A stretch of 32,000 nucleotides of DNA from Halomicronema hongdechloris C2206. GTDB lineage: Bacteria > Cyanobacteriota > Cyanobacteriia > Phormidesmidales > Phormidesmidaceae. The stretch is taken from positions 1,980,001 to 2,012,000 of the forward strand of contig NZ_CP021983.2 in the NCBI RefSeq assembly GCF_002075285.3, given 5' to 3'. This document shows positions 2,967-23,404 of this stretch, piece by piece; the first letter of the stretch is position 1, and every line of letters starts with the position of its first letter. The notes under the pieces were generated by a model. That model was not told the origin of the DNA. It searched no databases and was given only the letters and a program-made list of their open reading frames with translations. Both the position numbers and the translations under genes were made by a program.

Positions 2967-3470
2967 ATGACATGGTCAAGTACCGCTTCCTCACGCGAGC
3001 GCATACTGGGCGCTTTACCCTATTTGTTGCCTCTGATGGAGGTGTCCCTATTGGCATTGTCCTACGCGGTTAGATATGGCCTGGGACTATTTGCCCAGTT
3101 CCCACTGCTACAAGTAGTGCTGGTCCCCATATCACCACTGATTCGTATTTACACCAGCTTCCCATTTGCCGGACTGATTATTTTTATCCTGTTGCTGACT
3201 CTGGTGGTGCGTAATACCAATATCAGCCGCTTCATTCGTTTCAACACGATGCAGGCCATTCTTCTAGATATTGTGTTGATCCTGGGGCAGCTAATTCTCA
3301 ATATCGTGCTATTGCCTATTATGGGTCCCAATCTAGTGCTGGATACTCTGCTTAACGTCGTAGTTCTGGGTATCTATGCCGCCGTCATTTACTCCCTGGT
3401 GCAAACTGGGCTGGGGCGCTATGCGGAGATCCCTACCATCTCAGATGCGGTAAATATGCAGGTTCGTTAA
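2967..3470 (+). CDS. Tic20-family membrane protein
   Basis: About four hydrophobic segments. Motifs ERILGALPYLLPL and VVRNTNISRFIRFNTMQAILLDIVL match the conserved Tic20 core (RFxRFNxMQAxxLD). Confidence 0.65.
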   Translation: MTWSSTASSRERILGALPYLLPLMEVSLLALSYAVRYGLGLFAQFPLLQVVLVPISPLIRIYTSFPFAGLIIFILLLTLVVRNTNISRFIRFNTMQAILLDIVLILGQLILNIVLLPIMGPNLVLDTLLNVVVLGIYAAVIYSLVQTGLGRYAEIPTISDAVNMQVR

Positions 3471-3480
3471 GGAGACGGAG

Positions 3481-4305
3481 CTAATGGGGATTGGCAACGC
3501 TCTTAGAGCCATCGGTAGAAACTTGAGCTGTACCGCGACGGGTAACTGAGTTCTCTAAGGAGCCAATGCCTTCGATTTCGATCCGGACCTGATCTCCGAT
3601 GTGCAGAGGCCCAACCCCGGCTGGAGTGCCGGTTAGGATGACATCTCCAGGGAGTAGGGTCATGATCTGGCTGATATAGGCAACCAGCTGCTCCGGGGAA
3701 AAGATCATGTTATCGATGGAGGCTGATTGTACCGGGTCTTTTCGGTCGTTGAGGAAGGTTTGTAGGCGAGCTCCTGGACTTAGCTCCCGTACAATCCAGG
3801 GACCCAGGGGGCAAAAGGAGTCGAATCCCTTAGCCCGAGTCCACTGACCATCTCGCTTTTGTAAGTCTCGAGCAGTGACATCATTGGCAATGGTATATCC
3901 CCAAATCTTGGCTTGAGCCTGCTCAATTGGGCAATCTACGCAGCGCTCGCTGATTACGATGGCTAATTCTCCCTCGTAATCCACCCGTTGAGATTGGGGT
4001 GGATAGAAGATAGAGGCGCCGCTAGCAATCACTGCGGTGGACGGCTTGATGAACAAGAGGGGCTCCTGGGGAGGGGGAGAACCCATCTCAGCAGCATGCT
4101 GGGCGTAGTTTTTGCCGATGGCTAGAATTTTGGAAGGGGCGCAAGGCGCAAGAATAGTGTAGCTATCAGCAGGTAACTCTACATCTGTTAGTTGCCCCTT
4201 GAGCCAAGGTGGGGCGTCCAATACCCTAACACTGCGGTCTGGCTGTAGGAGACCATAGTGGAGTTGCCCTGCCTGAGATTGAATTCGAACGTAGCGCTGC
4301 GCCAT
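3481..4305 (-). CDS. fumarylacetoacetate hydrolase (FAH) family protein
   Basis: Contains KILAIGKNYAQHA, VDYEGELAIVI, YTIANDVTARDLQ, TRAKGFDSF and LLPGDVILTGTPAGVG, which are typical FAH / 2-keto-4-pentenoate hydratase fold motifs. Confidence 0.85.
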   Translation of the reverse strand: MAQRYVRIQSQAGQLHYGLLQPDRSVRVLDAPPWLKGQLTDVELPADSYTILAPCAPSKILAIGKNYAQHAAEMGSPPPQEPLLFIKPSTAVIASGASIFYPPQSQRVDYEGELAIVISERCVDCPIEQAQAKIWGYTIANDVTARDLQKRDGQWTRAKGFDSFCPLGPWIVRELSPGARLQTFLNDRKDPVQSASIDNMIFSPEQLVAYISQIMTLLPGDVILTGTPAGVGPLHIGDQVRIEIEGIGSLENSVTRRGTAQVSTDGSKSVANPH

Positions 4306-17401: not shown

Positions 17402-18184
17402 TTATGCAGCAGCAGGAGAAAAATGCCAGCAGATGAGGCAGCGGAGCCGAAATCGCTCAAAGTTGGTGAACCCGTAACCAGAGCGCTTGATCAACTTTAG
17501 GCGAGTATTGATGCCTTCGACGACACCGCTTGTGGTGCGGTGTTCAAAGTACTGGAGGATTTCGCCAAACCATCGCTTCATCGTTGCCACAGCCTCGGGG
17601 TAGAGGGATTGCGCGGTTCCCATCCAGCCCAGGAAACCCGGCAGGGCTTGAGCCCAAGACTGAGCCTCAAATAGAGTCCTAAAGGCTTCTTTGGTCTGAT
17701 GCATCAAGGCGAGTTTCGGCGAAACAGCTTTGACCTCAACGAGCTTGTCCTGCTGGGTCTTGGTGAGATGGGCTTCTGGCTTGAGGAGGGCATACTTACT
17801 GGATTTGAGCGCTGCTTTAGCCGCCTCAGGAGTGACGCCCTCGGCTAAAGCCTCGGGTGTCCGCCGGAGGGCGTTACGGGCTTGATTCAATTCCTGATTG
17901 ACCAGACTCATGACATGGAAACGGTCGGCCACAATCTCGGCTTGAGGCATCAGGCGATGCACTAAGCCCCGGTAATTGCCGGAGAGATCCATGCTGACTT
18001 CTTCAATGTTTGAGAGCACTTCGGCACCCCAGGTGTTGAGCACGGCTTCAATCGCCGCATGAGTCCGCGCTGGAGCCATCCCAATCAGCCTGTGAGTATC
18101 GAGGTCACTCAAGACCACAGCAAAGTCCTTGTGACCTTTACGTAGCGCGATTTCGTCGATGCCCAACCGCCGCAATCCACTCAA
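17402..18184 (-). CDS. ISL3 transposase, C-terminal DDE part (reached by a -1 shift)
   Basis: LGIDEIALRKGHKDFAVVLSDL..., ...VSMDLSGNYR..., ...ADRFHVM..., ...TSGVVEGINTRLKLIKRSGYGFTNFERFRLRCL are typical DDE_Tnp_ISL3 motifs. The frame stays open upstream through RKKVCIDLSG into the A-run. Confidence 0.8.
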   Translation of the reverse strand: MSGLRRLGIDEIALRKGHKDFAVVLSDLDTHRLIGMAPARTHAAIEAVLNTWGAEVLSNIEEVSMDLSGNYRGLVHRLMPQAEIVADRFHVMSLVNQELNQARNALRRTPEALAEGVTPEAAKAALKSSKYALLKPEAHLTKTQQDKLVEVKAVSPKLALMHQTKEAFRTLFEAQSWAQALPGFLGWMGTAQSLYPEAVATMKRWFGEILQYFEHRTTSGVVEGINTRLKLIKRSGYGFTNFERFRLRCLICWHFSPAAA

Positions 18185-18636
18185 GTCAATACAGACTTTT
18201 TTTCGCTGACATACTCCACCATGGACCAGACGATATCTTCGCTCAACCCGTGCTGTCGCGCCACATTAGCCGTATTACTATGAATCACCTCACTCACCAC
18301 CACCTCGGCATACCGGTCCGTGTACACCCGACGCGCGCCGACAAACTCCAGCTCCTCGCTGAAGGGTTTACCGCAGGTCGAACACTTAAACTGGCGGCGA
18401 TTCACCCGTAACCAGGTCTTCCGGTAATGGCTGATGGGTAGGTCACGCACCAGGTAGCCATGATTCTGATGGAGGTGGTGGCTCAAAGTCCCGCAGCGAG
18501 GACAGATTGCTGTGTCCCTGTGCGCTTCTACCTCCAGAATCAAGCCATCCTCGCTCTCCTGGTATGACTCCACATCAATGCCAGACAACCCCAAGAGTTC
18601 ACTCAAGAGAGGTACCATAGCGATACGGTATAGCAT
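18181..18636 (-). CDS. ISL3 transposase, N-terminal part (zinc-finger and HTH)
   Basis: CPRCG...H...RVNRRQFKCSTCGKPF is a zf-ISL3-type motif. The ORF ends ...VSEKKSVLT* directly after an A_AAA_AAG heptamer. Confidence 0.8.
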   Translation of the reverse strand: MLYRIAMVPLLSELLGLSGIDVESYQESEDGLILEVEAHRDTAICPRCGTLSHHLHQNHGYLVRDLPISHYRKTWLRVNRRQFKCSTCGKPFSEELEFVGARRVYTDRYAEVVVSEVIHSNTANVARQHGLSEDIVWSMVEYVSEKKSVLT

Positions 18637-19493: not shown

Positions 19494-20078
19494 ATGCAGT
19501 ATCCCCTAGAACTCACCTTCAAATTTTGGGCCCTGGCTCCCCAGATCTCGGTGACGGATGCCAGTGGCCAGCTGATGCTGTACGTACGTCAGCGGTTATT
19601 CAAGCTACGCGAGGCGATTCACGTCTTCGCCGATGCCAAGCGGAGTCAGGAACTCTATCGCATCCAGGCCGACCGCATCATTGACTTTTCCGCCCGCTAC
19701 ACGTTTACAGATCCCCAGGGTATGGAGCTAGGGGCCGTTAAGCGCCGCGGTTGGCGCTCGATCTGGCGAGCCCGCTATGACATCTTTGACGGTGACGCGG
19801 TGAGCTTCACTATCCAGGAAGAAAATCCCTGGGTGAAGGTGTTCGACTCCCTCTTTGCAGAGGTGCCCATTGTTGGCATGTTTACGGGCTTTGTGTTTAA
19901 CCCGGTCTATCTGGTCAGTCGCCTTGATGGCCCAACGGTGATGCGGCTGGCGAAAAAGCCCACGTTTCTTTCCCGTAAGTTTACGGTCAAGCAGACAGCC
20001 TATCTGAGTGAGCCGGAGGCAACCCAGGTGGTGTTGAGCCTGCTGATGATGCTGTTGCTGGAGCGTAATCGAGGCTAA
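19494..20078 (+). CDS. conserved hypothetical protein, possibly LURP-one-related / scramblase-like (Tubby C-terminal-like) fold
   Basis: From the ATG at 19494: MQYPLELTFKFWALAPQISVTDASGQLMLYVRQRLFKLRE... Beta-rich repeats of short strands are followed by a C-terminal hydrophobic helix VVLSLLMMLLLERNRG. The family call is from memory only. Confidence 0.45.
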   Translation: MQYPLELTFKFWALAPQISVTDASGQLMLYVRQRLFKLREAIHVFADAKRSQELYRIQADRIIDFSARYTFTDPQGMELGAVKRRGWRSIWRARYDIFDGDAVSFTIQEENPWVKVFDSLFAEVPIVGMFTGFVFNPVYLVSRLDGPTVMRLAKKPTFLSRKFTVKQTAYLSEPEATQVVLSLLMMLLLERNRG

Positions 20079-20360
20079 AAACGACTGGGCAGGGAGTACC
20101 AGGTTGGGCCGAGTTGCGATCGCATCCTCATCCCAGCCGCGCCAAGCAAACGACGATTCCAGGCCGTGATGGAGCCAGCGTAGGAGCTGCCAGGGCAGTT
20201 CTACGAAGTTGCCATAAAGACCCATTGATTTTTCTTTGGGCCGCAACGATTTCTGCCTGGTCCTTTGCTATAGTCAGGCGGCTCTCTGTGAAGTTTCCAT
20301 GGGCCGCAGCGATTTTTCGGTGGGACGCCAGCATTTCTATGGGGGGCAGAGCGACAGTCG

Positions 20361-20392
20361 GAATTCAAAATTCAAAATTCAAAGTTCAAAAT
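20361..20392 (+). repeat. 32-nt octamer-based repeat, copy A1 (GAATTCAAAATTCAAAATTCAAAGTTCAAAAT)
   Basis: Built from AATTCAAA-like octamers. 30/32 identical to copy A2. Confidence 0.9.
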
Positions 20393-20476
20393 ACCCTGCG
20401 GCAAGCCTCGCTTCGCTCGTCTACAAAATTCAAAGGTAGATGAGTAGCATGCACCCCGTAGCGTCCCCTTCTACTT

Positions 20477-20556
20477 AATTTTGAATTGACAACGGTTCGA
20501 CAAGTTGCTCCTGCGGAGCCGCTACGCGAACACCCCATGCTTTGAATTTTGAATTG
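20477..20556 (+). repeat. REP-like module, copy 1 (AATTTTGAATTG-ACAACGGTTCGA...CACCCCATGCTTTGAATTTTGAATTG)
   Basis: Shares both ends and the ACGGTTCGA / CACCCCATGC cores with 21199-21254. Copy 1 has an extra ~25-nt insert. It ends 7 nt before the RAYT ATG. Confidence 0.75.
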
Positions 20557-20563
20557 TCTCGTC

Positions 20564-20761
20564 ATGCCACGACAACCGCGTCAACTCAAGCCCAATTACT
20601 GCTACCACGTCACCACTCGCTGCAATAATCGAGACTTTCGCCTGACTCGGGTCGAATGCAAAGAGGTTTTGCTGTATGCGATTGAGCGTTGCCAGGCCAA
20701 ATACGGCTTCAAGCTCTACGCTCTCTGCATCATGAGCAACCACGATAGAATTCAAAATTAG
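20564..20761 (+). pseudogene. REP-associated tyrosine transposase (RAYT, IS200/IS605-like Y1) 5' fragment
   Basis: MPRQPRQLKPNYCYHVTTRCNNRDFRLTRVECKEVLLYAIERCQAKYGFKLYALCIMSNH is the N-terminal third of a Y1 transposase. The frame leaves the family consensus just where the HUH motif (SNHVHLL) is expected, enters repeat A2 and stops. Confidence 0.65.
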
Positions 20762-20779
20762 AAATTCAAAGTTCAAAAT
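20748..20779 (+). repeat. 32-nt repeat, copy A2 (GAATTCAAAATTAGAAATTCAAAGTTCAAAAT)
   Basis: Contains the stop of the RAYT fragment and the first two bases of the ATG of the four-helix-bundle gene. Confidence 0.9.
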
Positions 20780-21161
20780 GAGTGAACAGCCCCTCAGGCC
20801 AATTACGGAGCGAACTTTCGAATTTGCGGTGCGGATTGTTAGGCTATGTGACAGCCTAGACAATAAGGCAAGGATAAGCTGCCCCCTGATCACGCAACTG
20901 ATTCGTTCTGGTACATCAGTAGGGGCCAATGTGGAGGAGTCCCAAGCTGCCCAAAGCAGGGCTGATTTCATTCATAAACTAGAGATTGCTTTGAAGGAGT
21001 TGCGGGAAACTCGATATTGGTTAAGGCTGTTGGTAGCGACCGAGATAGTGTCTGCAGGCAAGTTACAGGCTTTACTGACCGAGTCAGAGGAGTTGGTGAA
21101 GATTCTTTCGAAGATTATCGTGAATACGAAGAGGAAAGGAAATGAAGGAAGTCAAAATTAG
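20778..21161 (+). CDS. four-helix-bundle protein (23S rRNA intervening-sequence protein / Avd-like family)
   Basis: FEFAVRIVRLC..L......LITQLIRSGTSVGANVEESQAAQSRADFIHKLEIALKELRETRYWLRLL is a hallmark motif of this family (SIGANIAEG...S..DF..KL.IA.KE..ET.YWL.L). Confidence 0.85.
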   Translation: MSEQPLRPITERTFEFAVRIVRLCDSLDNKARISCPLITQLIRSGTSVGANVEESQAAQSRADFIHKLEIALKELRETRYWLRLLVATEIVSAGKLQALLTESEELVKILSKIIVNTKRKGNEGSQN

Positions 21162-21178
21162 AAATTCAAAGTTCAAAA
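21147..21178 (+). repeat. 32-nt repeat, copy A3 (GAAGTCAAAATTAGAAATTCAAAGTTCAAAAT)
   Basis: 31/32 identical to A2, with the last 28 nt perfect. Contains the stop codon of the four-helix-bundle gene. Confidence 0.9.
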
Positions 21179-21198
21179 TAAGTCGTTCTTTATCTCTC

Positions 21199-21254
21199 AA
21201 TTTTGAATTTTCAACGGTTCGATAAACTCACCCCATGCTTTGAATTTTGAATTG
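21199..21254 (+). repeat. REP-like module, copy 2
   Basis: AATTTTGAATTTTCAACGGTTCGATAAACTCACCCCATGCTTTGAATTTTGAATTG. Confidence 0.75.
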
Positions 21255-21280
21255 CTCTGCTGAGTTATTCGTTACTTCTC

Positions 21281-21314
21281 AATTTTGAATTTTCAACTTT
21301 GAATTTTGAATTTC
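21281..21314 (-). repeat. inverted copy of the octamer-based repeat
   Basis: The reverse complement GAAATTCAAAATTCAAAGTTGAAAATTCAAAATT shares the AAATTCAAAGTT(C/G)AAAAT core with A1-A3. Confidence 0.75.
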
Positions 21315-21409
21315 TACCGGTGCCAGGTAAGGGATCTTCGAAACACCGATTTTGCCGTGGGGAGAAGGTCTGAAATAACGAGTTTGGATCGAACTGAAGC
21401 GCTTATATG

Positions 21410-23404
21410 CTACAGTTTACAAGTCGTTGCACGAGAAAAGAGAAGCTCAAAACGCTCGAGGGCAGAACCGATCCCATAAGCCCGGCCAAAACCAAAAAAG
21501 CCCAGCCAAAAGCCAAACGGAGGGAGGTGGCCGCTTGGGGCAGCGGTGCTTAATGTTACATCCGAAAGCCCAATCCAGTTACCATCCACACGCCATCCCA
21601 CCCTATCGCCAAAGCACTGCCAGGCAGCTTCATCATACTCGCCATCCGGTGATCCGCCACACTCTTCTACGTAGATAGCTTTCTGCACACTGAAGCCAAA
21701 CTGGCCATCACTGGCATCCACCCAAAGCTGATCGAGTTTTAGGACGGCATTGCAGGGAAAAGTCTCTAGACTCTCAGAGTCCAACCAGCCTTCGGATTCT
21801 CGGTTGGCAACTTTCAGCATAATATTACGGGTTGCCTCATCGGCTTCTTTCCACTGTCCGGCATCCAGCAACTCTGCTAATCGCCTGTAGTCTTCATCTG
21901 CCCCAGACTCTAATGCTGTCTCATTCGGATCTAACGCTTCTCCTTCAGACGGTGCATCCTCTGGCAGTGCAGGGTTCGGCGAGGATGATAAGGGGACATC
22001 TTTCAGAGCCTGGTTAATGCCGAAGGTAATCAGGATGCCAACCCCGCCTAGACCCACCCATTTCAGAAATTGCTGTCGCGATATTGTGGCATCGCTAGTA
22101 GCTGTGGAGGATTGAGATGACGATCGAGGCGGCGTTGATTGGGGGGCTGTCTTAGGTCGGCGGCTCGCCGCGTCTCGATCAGTTGCTTCTGGCTGTCCAC
22201 CTTGGGTGTTGGTAGCTTGTCGTTGTCGGTCCGTCTCAGCCTGGCGTCTACGCTCGGCCTCTTCCTGGGCCTGCTGTTGGCGCCTTCTAGCAGCGCCCAG
22301 TCGCTGGCGTTCCAAGCCTAAGGCATACTCCTCCAGATCACGGCCATTCAGGGCGGCGCGTTCCATTGCGGCCACATCCTCGGGCTTTAGTCGCAGATGA
22401 GCTCGAAAATCAGCCAGGTCTTGTATGATACGAGGGCTCAGCGGGGTTTCGGTCTGCAGGCACTGCTGCAGGGTGTCCTGATATTCTTGCCGCTTGCGTT
22501 GATATTCCTGAAACGGCTTCAGCACCTCGGCTTCAATGGCCTCGGCTTCTGTATCTGAGAGCCCAAAGTCTTGTCGCAGCGCCCTCAGCAGGCGCTTGGC
22601 AGGAATGGAAAATTGCCCAGTAGCAGCTCGTTTCTCAGCTTCTTTGCGGTATTTCACCCTAGGATCATCCTGGGGTGAGCGGGCCAGTCGAATCCGATAG
22701 CCCTCGTCCTTCAGGGTGATCATCTTGGGGCTCATGGCCGGAGACGTATCCCTGACCTTGCGGCCCGCAAAATGGTGCAGCTCATCGACGGTAATCACCC
22801 CATCTTCGTCTTCGTCGGCGGCACCGCTGACGATGCCTTCCACCAGATAACGGGTATAGATGGACAGATCGGCACCCTTCTCTTCGAAGGAATAGTCCAC
22901 TGCACTGGTGGAGGTCAGCACCACCCGCCCTTCTGCCCCCAGCTGCTCTGTCAAGTTGATGTCGCCATCATCCCGAGCCATCAGGTCACCGAAGGCGCCG
23001 CTGAAGCAGCAGTCCAGGATCAATACCTGATACTTGGCCTGACAGCTACGAACACAGTCGTGGACGAAACGGGCGGAGGTGGCAGTGGAGCGGACTAAGC
23101 GATTGTTGACCTTCTCGGTATTGCAGGCGGCGAAGTACAAGTCACGGCGCTCATCTTTGACCCCATGACCGGAGAAAAACAGCACAACCAAGTCATCTGG
23201 TTTCCGTCCTTGGAACCATAGTTCAATTTCCCGAGCTATGGTGGCATGGCTGGGATTGATGATCACCTTCACCTGGTCAAACCCGCCCAAGGTAGGTTCC
23301 TGCAGTACCTTCTGTAGTGCTGCCACGTCATTAGGAGCGGCTGGCAACGGCTGTAGACCTTTGCCATACTCGCCGACGCCGATTAAGAGGGCGTACTTCC
23401 CCAT
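21410..23404 (-). CDS. membrane-anchored orthocaspase (peptidase C14) with C-terminal GUN4 porphyrin-binding domain
   Basis: N-terminal p20-like domain KYALLIGVGEY..., catalytic His in VVLFFSGHG and catalytic Cys in QVLILDCCFSGAF. A helical/coiled-coil Arg/Gln/Glu-rich middle. One hydrophobic helix FLKWVGLGGVGILITFGINQAL. C-terminal GUN4 signature AGQWKEADEAT...FPCNAVLKLDQLWVDASDGQFGFSVQKAIY...VGW...APSGHLP. Confidence 0.85.
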   Translation of the reverse strand: MGKYALLIGVGEYGKGLQPLPAAPNDVAALQKVLQEPTLGGFDQVKVIINPSHATIAREIELWFQGRKPDDLVVLFFSGHGVKDERRDLYFAACNTEKVNNRLVRSTATSARFVHDCVRSCQAKYQVLILDCCFSGAFGDLMARDDGDINLTEQLGAEGRVVLTSTSAVDYSFEEKGADLSIYTRYLVEGIVSGAADEDEDGVITVDELHHFAGRKVRDTSPAMSPKMITLKDEGYRIRLARSPQDDPRVKYRKEAEKRAATGQFSIPAKRLLRALRQDFGLSDTEAEAIEAEVLKPFQEYQRKRQEYQDTLQQCLQTETPLSPRIIQDLADFRAHLRLKPEDVAAMERAALNGRDLEEYALGLERQRLGAARRRQQQAQEEAERRRQAETDRQRQATNTQGGQPEATDRDAASRRPKTAPQSTPPRSSSQSSTATSDATISRQQFLKWVGLGGVGILITFGINQALKDVPLSSSPNPALPEDAPSEGEALDPNETALESGADEDYRRLAELLDAGQWKEADEATRNIMLKVANRESEGWLDSESLETFPCNAVLKLDQLWVDASDGQFGFSVQKAIYVEECGGSPDGEYDEAAWQCFGDRVGWRVDGNWIGLSDVTLSTAAPSGHLPPFGFWLGFFGFGRAYGIGSALERFELLFSRATTCKL

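Follow-up and report, generated by a model that had tools for sequence, protein, structure and literature searches.

A probable intervening-sequence-type hairpin cassette with a four-helix-bundle gene in protein-coding DNA of Halomicronema hongdechloris

A segment of ∼570 bp (positions 20748-21317) was analyzed within a 32,000-nt stretch of Halomicronema hongdechloris C2206 (contig NZ_CP021983.2, positions 1,980,001 to 2,012,000; called the window below and numbered from its first letter). The segment is probably a hairpin cassette of the intervening sequence (IVS) type, in which the open reading frame (ORF) of a four-helix-bundle (4HB) protein (PF05635/TIGR02436, S23p/Avd-like) is bracketed by complementary heptamer arrays, and it lies in protein-coding DNA, in what is left of a gene for a REP-associated Y1 HUH transposase (RAYT; REP, repetitive extragenic palindrome). 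Few multicopy bacterial genes of unknown function are as common as the 4HB genes known as “S23p” or “23S rRNA IVS”, which are relatives of Avd. IVSs that encode S23p occur in helix 9, 25 or 45 of the 23S rRNA gene in Leptospira, Coxiella burnetii, Haemophilus, Brucella and Xanthomonas, and where the rRNA IVSs come from has been debated since the early 1990s.

The 4HB gene of the window is intact. Its product of 127 amino acid residues matched PF05635 (E=1.3e-22), TIGR02436 (E=4e-28) and PDB 2RLD (E=1.5e-26), was 100% identical to XM38_019040 of H. hongdechloris C2206, and kept all 29 invariant columns of the clade alignment; no match to it was found among the PADLOC defence models. The GC content of the ORF is 47.1%, with 52% at third codon positions (GC3), as compared with a GC3 of 57-68% in the neighbours and a GC content of 54.4% in the window, and the element as a whole has a GC content of 40.9%. 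The low GC of the ORF is consistent with a foreign origin.

An earlier note on this DNA had described three direct copies of a repeat, an inverted copy, two B modules, a RAYT fragment and the 4HB gene, all of which were recovered in place. The repeat unit, taken there for an octamer, has a period of 7 (AATTCAA), with consecutive starts at 20362, 20369 and 20376. Nine sites of AATTCAAARTTCAAA (at most one mismatch) were found in the window, all within 20362-21312, as compared with 0 matches in 100 shuffles. With 20748-20783 (A2) as the reference, direct copies of 36 nt were located at 20361-20396 (A1, 83% identity) and 21148-21183 (A3, 94%), at spacings of 387 and 400 nt, and an inverted copy of 36 nt (Ainv, 21282-21317) was 86% complementary to 20357-20392. 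A2 and A3 are the same at 34 of 36 positions, and their identity reaches into ATGAGT/ATAAGT. The 4HB gene starts with an ATG that overlaps the end of A2, and it stops at a TAG within A3.

The two outer arms were predicted to pair with each other. The A2:Ainv duplex comprised 34 pairs (20745-20783 with 21277-21317) at -24.0 kcal/mol, as compared with -7.9 ± 2.2 kcal/mol for shuffles, and it formed the outer stem of the predicted minimum free energy fold, where it encloses the ORF and covers the AUG. A3 was predicted to pair with Ainv (19 pairs, -21.7 kcal/mol) or with B2 (17 pairs), and through either partner it can, in the modelled structure, form a possible 3′ hairpin in competition with A2:Ainv.

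The place of the element was defined by comparison with relatives of the RAYT. A metagenome scan using the alignment of the fragment gave 80 loci, which made 83 with three found earlier (L-numbers below denote comparison loci of 4HB or RAYT relatives). The stump ORF runs from ATG 20564 to TAG 20761 (65 codons), its homologous part being codons 1-60 (to 20743), and it matched Pfam Y1_Tnp (E=2e-5, profile positions 4-52 of 121) and NCBIfam REP_Tyr_transpos (positions 3-58 of 146; 33.7 bits, under the cut-off of 80). Homology to the 80 relatives ends at 20742-20747 after ...IMSNH, where the family goes on VHYL..., so the earlier observation that the gene stops matching its family at the HUH motif was borne out. 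The stump reads ...SNH|D where relatives have SNHVHYL, is without the second His of HUH, the ...LRYIHANP... stretch and the catalytic Tyr region, and ends in a tail (DRIQN and the TAG) encoded by the repeat A2. Judged from its sequence, it is a pseudogene of a true RAYT family. A protein search with the 65-residue stump, which returned matches of 51-114 amino acid residues only, had suggested that this family is always truncated; this was ruled out by the intact ORFs in the metagenome scan, which continue past the truncation point in 50 of the 83 loci, have 245-298 amino acid residues, read SNHVHYL at HUH and carry a long C-terminal part.

Three loci with an intact RAYT (L139, L102 and L086) align with the window up to 20742 and again from 21317-21319, where they are 80-85% identical. 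Homology is thus lost at 20742-20747 and regained at 21317-21319, and therefore codon 61-to-stop of the RAYT has been replaced by the element: this part measures 594 bp in L139, and its counterpart in the window (20743-21318) is 576 bp of element. The 4HB unit has overwritten codon 61-to-stop, and the alignment gives the gene no natural end at this point. The distal end of Ainv lies 2-4 nt from the invariant GGTGCCAGGTAA motif, which normally comes after the RAYT stop. A stretch after Ainv that reads YRCQVRD was considered as a remnant of the RAYT C-terminus and dropped, as the closest intact loci have their stop before the GGTGCCAGGTAA motif. Independent disruptions of RAYT genes were also seen to cluster at codons 58-63, which code for HUH (window 20742-20747, L003 ∼2831, L090 4183, L001 3201 and L164 ∼2674), in excess of an even spread over ∼200 codons; the disruptors are 4HB elements (window, L003 and L164), a plain deletion (L090) and a miniature inverted-repeat transposable element (MITE; L001).

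The heptamer bracket was then found to be a property of the 4HB genes at large. Loci round at least 80 homologues were listed (contigs of one genome per species; more than 10 phyla), and flank statistics were drawn from the 81 4HB genes among the matches listed (23 cyanobacterial and 58 other), with the remaining ORFs of the same loci as controls, a flank window of 100 nt per side, and a score of at least 14 as high complementarity. In nearly all cyanobacterial loci among the matches listed, tandem heptamers stand upstream of the gene, often touching the ATG, and a reverse-complement array follows directly after the stop. The same bracket occurs in Chloroflexi, Acidobacteria, Planctomycetes, Verrucomicrobia, Proteobacteria, Nitrospirae and Firmicutes, and in more than 10 phyla in all, typical forms being (GTGAAGG)n-ATG...stop-(CCTTCAC)n and (AAAAGGC)n...(GCCTTTT)n. 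Period-7 arrays were present on both flanks of 74% of the cyanobacterial 4HB genes (n=23) and 57% of the others (n=58), as compared with 3% (n=119) and 1% (n=395) of the control ORFs, and high flank complementarity was observed for 74% of the cyanobacterial 4HB genes, 64% of the others and 1% of the control ORFs. The bracket is thereby enriched 25- to 50-fold at 4HB genes, and the repeat is linked in position to these genes, as the earlier note had supposed, rather than being a ubiquitous simple sequence. The arrays hold 3-5 copies of the unit, with period 7 predominant both upstream (61/82 genes) and downstream (67/82). The upstream unit is the reverse complement of the downstream unit, with at most one mismatch, in 52 of 63 genes (∼8 expected from shuffled pairing), and 51 of 61 genes have an upstream array that is rich in purines on the coding strand.

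The type of heptamer also follows the protein. It tracks the protein tree, with a Mantel r of -0.246 that none of 2000 permutations reached, and 4HB proteins compared between phyla are 54.7% identical if they share a heptamer type versus 49.1% if they do not, a difference reached in 0 of 1000 within-phylum permutations; therefore the arms and the ORF have been inherited or transferred together. The relatives of the nearest clade (L004, L005, L007, L009 and L012) are flanked by AATTCAA-type arrays, that is, by the repeat type of the window, as the earlier note had anticipated. In L004, a Halomicronema metagenome-assembled genome with the nearest homologue among the matches listed, array and ORF are co-linear with the window from 20746, and no RAYT or GUN4 match was found in its 3.1-kb contig. 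The repeat had been proposed as a pre-existing target; the tracking of heptamer type and protein, the array and ORF of L004 and the comparison with intact RAYT loci show instead that it belongs to the element and travels with the gene. As a separate observation, two 4HB elements of Limisphaerales (L035 and L055), with the heptamers AAAAGGC and AATTAAA/AATTCAA, apparently occupy the same junction between adjacent ABC-transporter ATPase-like genes. These neighbours look livG/livF-like by sequence; the upstream gene ends ...IEAYLG, and the element extends from its stop to the start of the next gene.

An IVS-type cassette of this kind would work as follows. It would have no promoter of its own and would be transcribed by read-through from the host gene; in the window, no sigma-70-like promoter and no convincing terminator-like site were found in 20000-21500. 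The arms would pair in the RNA, and RNase III would cut the stem, as in the 23S IVSs, which would free the loop that bears the ORF and limit the harm to the host transcript. More speculatively, A3 might act as an alternative partner for Ainv, so that the AUG would be exposed. In the DNA itself, the arms could serve as hairpin or terminal-inverted-repeat ends, and they might let the unit and arm-only derivatives move, vary their copy number by slippage and shed adjacent DNA.

Several results weigh against this picture of the element. RNase III processing of the window element is presumed by analogy with the IVS literature. Folded as a whole, the element does not exceed its shuffles in stability (z=-1.3). 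No significant strand bias was detected in the arm duplexes (47 loci favoured the sense and 33 the antisense duplex in stability; p=0.11), nor was an RNA-level bias detected in arm mismatches (48 of G:U type and 41 of A:C type; p=0.53), and with both tests non-significant the arms could have their role in the DNA, in the RNA, or in both. A direct pair such as A2/A3 is not typical of this family. A near-identical paralogue of the 4HB gene was absent from the best 120 database matches, the next best being 73-76% identical, and recent activity in H. hongdechloris is therefore unsupported. No clean insertion was found, with neither a target duplication nor a simple filled-versus-empty pair, every RAYT case being an insertion with a deletion. 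No target-site duplication was visible at 20748/21317 or round M1 (a hairpin module upstream of the stump; Table 1); the deletion in every case studied would erase one.

A much wider proposal would make the 4HB gene with its heptamer arms a pan-bacterial family of hairpin-ended selfish cassettes, of which the 23S IVSs would be the best-known landing sites. The arms of 3-5 heptamers would be functional ends, to be recognised by the 4HB pentamer, by hairpin transposases of the Y1 (RAYT) type, or by both, and the elements would seed part of the unexplained heptanucleotide arrays in bacterial genomes that resemble short tandemly repeated repetitive (STRR) sequences, as well as part of the arm-only hairpins. 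This proposal is regarded as doubtful, and is offered tentatively.

How the elements move bears on the alternative that survives best. By this account the heptamer hairpins, whether or not they carry a 4HB gene, serve RAYTs as REPIN-like substrates, the RAYTs being Y1 HUH enzymes that act on single-stranded hairpins; it concerns the mobility step only, is compatible with an IVS-type cassette, and is considered unlikely. Hairpins would then pile up in or next to RAYT genes, and in the slot 5′ of the GTGCCAGGTA motif, because the RAYT would move them. Of the 47 loci with sufficient downstream sequence, 32 have a GUN4-domain gene convergent with the RAYT of this family, distant cyanobacteria included. 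The GTGCCAGGTA motif is invariant in 13 loci, and takes the form GGTGCCAGGTA(A/T) beside the RAYT stop (window 21319-21330); no consensus secondary structure was found in the conserved RAYT-GUN4 intergenic stretch of these 13 aligned loci. At intact loci the motif normally lies at most 20 nt from the stop, and otherwise the gap holds REPIN-like palindromes or heptamer arrays; such hairpins or arrays were wedged between the two in 8 of 38 intact loci.

At intact RAYTs the slot holds classical REPIN palindromes (L089, L091 and L095) or heptamer arrays (L115 and L154), which favours this alternative. The slot may be an insertion or landing slot, an element end, or the result of mobilisation by the RAYT. 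The arrays of L154 (282 nt after the RAYT stop) and L115 are of the (TAACTGA)n type, between the stop and the GTGCCAGGTA motif. Also in its favour, the window Ainv, the arm of L067/L069 and an arm-only hairpin of L166 all abut the motif, at least five element lineages (arms AATTCAA, CCAAAAT, AAGTCAA, AATTCGC and AATTTAG) lie in both orientations between the GUN4 gene and the RAYT stump, and 3 of 24 cyanobacterial loci sampled by 4HB similarity alone are at the RAYT-GUN4 locus. The L166 hairpin (3385-3490) has no ORF, belongs to the AAGTCAA lineage and abuts GTGCCAGGTATCGG; the RAYT pseudogene that contains it also holds a complete 4HB element next to it. L085, L164 and L166 carry one element lineage, with termini CCCCTTTGGGGAAGTCAAAAG... 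and ...GACTTCCCGATAGGGAG (inverted CCCCTTTGGGGAAGTC... / ...GACTTCCCGATAGGG). They share a junction at RAYT W164, and on the other side the RAYT is kept to residue 80, 60 or ∼86, with the element terminus intact; this pattern, which also fits a role of the RAYT, suggests end-anchored adjacent deletions. Where RAYT stumps with heptamer-encoded tails were looked up, a 4HB gene came next in 2 of 2, as predicted beforehand. This outcome speaks for the IVS-type cassette, as do the defined termini and the arm-only copy in L085, L164 and L166.

The same loci speak against movement by RAYTs in other respects. Intact RAYTs are mostly flanked by palindromes that are not built of heptamers, the RAYTs beside 4HB elements are dead, and no adjacent RAYT of this family was found at the 4HB elements of other phyla. 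RAYT pseudogenes also gather unrelated MITEs and plain deletions (L001, L151, L125 and L090), like a neutral graveyard, and sampling from the RAYT side gave a 4HB gene at 2 of 83 further loci, near the neutral expectation; for these two reasons the evidence on RAYT-4HB mobility is not decisive. A 4HB gene with an internal TAA, where the clade has Q (KQLIRSGTS), was also observed in the GUN4-RAYT interval of Anabaena sp. UHCC 0204 (L059, 3995-4348); it is a decaying copy with its arms still present.

The model of the earlier note, now judged very improbable, was an integron-like array whose direct 32-nt repeat copies recombined, so that the 4HB gene was inserted or captured. It would account for three direct copies at similar spacing, for an identity of A2 and A3 (94% over 36 nt) above what heptamer periodicity gives, and for the stop that the RAYT-stump and 4HB ORFs have in common, one TAG of the repeat read in one frame; heptamer arrays could also provide homology for recombination between elements of one family. 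The common stop frame is, however, a 1-in-3 coincidence given that A3 copies A2. No integrase or other recombinase was found at the locus among the window ORFs scanned, the nearest transposase being of the ISL3 family (17402-18636). What had been called the first cassette is the 5′ stump of a resident, syntenic gene, the RAYT convergent with the GUN4-domain gene. Inverted arrays are the rule in 84 homologous genes; direct arrays of one unit flank the gene on either side at 5 of 25 cyanobacterial loci and at 0 of 59 others. The part of that model which stands is the 4HB gene as a discrete unit by which a RAYT gene was destroyed, as the length of the intact homologues indicates; its bounds, however, are the inverted arms A2 and Ainv and not direct 32-nt sites.

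The least credible account has nothing mobile here, only STRR-type repeats made by slippage in an AT-rich, decaying locus with the 4HB gene as an ordinary resident: heptanucleotide repeats are indeed common in cyanobacteria and ascribed to slippage (Mrazek 2007, as cited in PMC4679880), heptamer copy number varies among orthologous elements (L007, L009 and L012; L067 and L069), and ∼10% of control ORF flanks in cyanobacterial loci have a one-sided array, but the account is contradicted by the enrichment of the bracket at 4HB genes, by the match of the two arms to each other and by an arm type that follows protein lineage across phyla, and further opposed by the spread of the bracket over more than 10 phyla, by the confinement of the motif to this one place in the window and by the absence of the element from orthologous intact-RAYT loci.

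The features of the locus are collected in Table 1. Besides the cassette, the window contains two arm-only (ORF-less) modules of the heptamer family. The first, M1, lies between the REP-like repeats and the ATG of the RAYT, a position without such an insert at intact-RAYT loci, and its predicted RNA fold is stable (-66.6 kcal/mol, z=-4.9; equally stable shuffles 0/200), with an A1:B1 duplex of 20 pairs. As a hairpin adjoining the RAYT stump, M1 is a REPIN candidate; its B-module core had no copy among the 163 comparison loci searched. The second is A3-B2. B1 equals B2 in sequence save for a 24-nt GC-rich insert, GCTCCTGCGGAGCCGCTACGCGAA (20508-20531), and a similar stretch, CCTGCGGCAAGCCTCGCTTCGCTCG, follows A1 at 20393-20424. 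Both recall the “small dispersed repeats” of 21-27 nt that Elhai reportedly described in 2008 for Nostocaceae. The GC-rich repeats upstream of M1 resemble GGTGCATTGCGGCC(CA), found as inverted pairs directly upstream of intact RAYTs in L139 and L102, and are probably REP-type repeats that belong to the resident RAYT.

Table 1. Features of the locus and its flanks in the window
Feature	Position	Strand	Basis or remark
Three direct GC-rich repeats, 16-27 nt, TGGGCCGCAACGATTT family	20226-20336	+	Upstream of M1
M1, hairpin module without ORF, heptamer family	20353-20559	+	Arm A1 20361-20392, (AATTCAA)x4; B1 20477-20556, ending in inverted heptamers CTTTGAATTTTGAATT
RAYT stump	20564-20761	+	Pfam/NCBIfam profiles, homology to relatives
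Whole 4HB element, probably of IVS type (A2, ORF, A3, B2, Ainv)	20748-21317	+	Homology break and return in intact-RAYT loci; minimum free energy fold
A2, 5′ arm, degenerate heptamers GAATTCA AAATTAG AAATTCA AAGTTCA AAAT	20748-20779	+	Final base is the A of the 4HB ATG
4HB gene, intact, 127 amino acid residues	20778-21161	+	PF05635/TIGR02436
A3, direct copy of A2, contains the 4HB stop codon	21147-21178	+	Repeat comparison, pairing
B2, second B module without the 24-nt insert, ending in CTTTGAATTTTGAATTG	21199-21254	+	Repeat comparison
Ainv, 3′ arm, inverted heptamer array AATTTTGAATTTTCAACTTTGAATTTTGAATTTC	21281-21317	+	Inverted repeat
Conserved RAYT 3′ flank, from the GGTGCCAGGTAA motif (21319-21330) to the stop of the convergent GUN4-domain gene	21319-21409	+	80-85% identity to L139, L102, L086
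Caspase (Peptidase_C14) + GUN4-domain gene, context outside the element	21410-23404	-	Convergent with RAYT

The N-terminal domain of the GUN4-domain gene differs between loci (caspase, TIR, Ser/Thr kinase or EAD1). In the caspase-GUN4 protein of the window, the C-terminal GUN4-like part matched PADLOC PD-T4-6 (E=9e-38, profile 302-448 of 450) and the N-terminus matched a “caspase” defence model; from these matches the protein is probably an anti-phage effector-sensor fusion. The ISL3-family transposase lies on the minus strand, 1.7 kb upstream of the locus, in two ORFs, one with a zinc ribbon and a helix-turn-helix (151 amino acid residues) and one with DDE (260 amino acid residues), and is either frameshifted or a pseudogene.

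The IVS design itself is already known. Its occurrence outside rRNA as a clade-wide rule, the co-variation of arms and protein, the arm-only derivatives and the recurrent RAYT-GUN4 landing site appear to be unreported in the literature searched, where 4HB/PF05635 genes were linked to heptamer arrays by the Coxiella IVS paper only and no such link was found for non-rRNA 4HB genes. The old idea that IVSs may be remnants of mobile elements would thereby acquire a unit that is well defined and has clear ends. For part of the heptanucleotide repeats long known from cyanobacteria and other phyla there would be a possible source, and the RAYT-GUN4 interval would stand out as a recurrent landing site.

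Among known systems, the integron cassette array differs in several ways, with no recombinase found at the present locus, a resident gene stump as the supposed first cassette, and homologues bounded by inverted arrays. Avd of diversity-generating retroelements (DGRs) is a pentameric, nucleic-acid associated four-helix bundle (PMC10053308). The window protein is of the same superfamily, and its PDB relative 2RLD has 5 chains; unlike DGR Avd, it falls in the stand-alone TIGR02436 clade and has a RAYT stump and the caspase-GUN4 gene as neighbours. The window ORFs scanned included no reverse transcriptase, which means that the gene is not a DGR Avd; a template/variable repeat pair was not noted either.

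Heptamer direct repeats, TAACTGA included, have been described from Beggiatoaceae and cyanobacteria as intergenic, often directly upstream of start codons, variable in copy number and patchy across phyla (MacGregor 2015; PMC4679880), and the source attributes to Mrazek 2007 the view, already mentioned, of slippage. The reported STRR and heptanucleotide repeats are direct arrays without a link to a gene family, whereas here complementary pairs surround one gene family. With MITEs the elements share defined inverted termini, ORF-less derivatives and insertion into non-essential DNA; they differ in that a target-site duplication was not observed, in having no known cognate transposase, and in a “full-length” form that encodes a 4HB protein instead of a transposase. 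With the REPIN/RAYT system the window shares short non-autonomous hairpins beside a RAYT (here the stump, the GC-rich REP-like repeats, M1 and A3-B2), although classical REPINs have no ORF and are not tandem heptamers, and in the window the RAYT is dead and its link to the arms positional only.

The closest likeness is to the 23S IVS. By an Rfam scan the window holds no rRNA, with one tRNA as the sole match, so that the element does not share the location of an IVS: it lies in a RAYT pseudogene and not in an rRNA gene. It also differs in its arms, which consist almost wholly of AT-rich heptamers, and in two additional parts, A3 as a direct copy of the 5′ arm and a B module further inside. In design the two agree, as units of ∼430-570 nt with a PF05635 ORF, a long terminal stem that encloses it and, presumably, no promoter of their own. 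The Coxiella IVS has 428 nt and a terminal stem of 28 bp cut by RNase III; its loop carries the S23p ORF, whose ATG is preceded by 2-3 GACAGAT heptamers in tandem (PMC4990558). A 4HB cassette bounded by repeats, which the earlier note had offered as a mechanism of spread, has a precedent in the S23p 23S rRNA IVS, down to the heptamers before the ATG; in the window, A2 is likewise a heptamer array, of 4.5 units, that ends in the ATG and belongs to a family with variable copy number.

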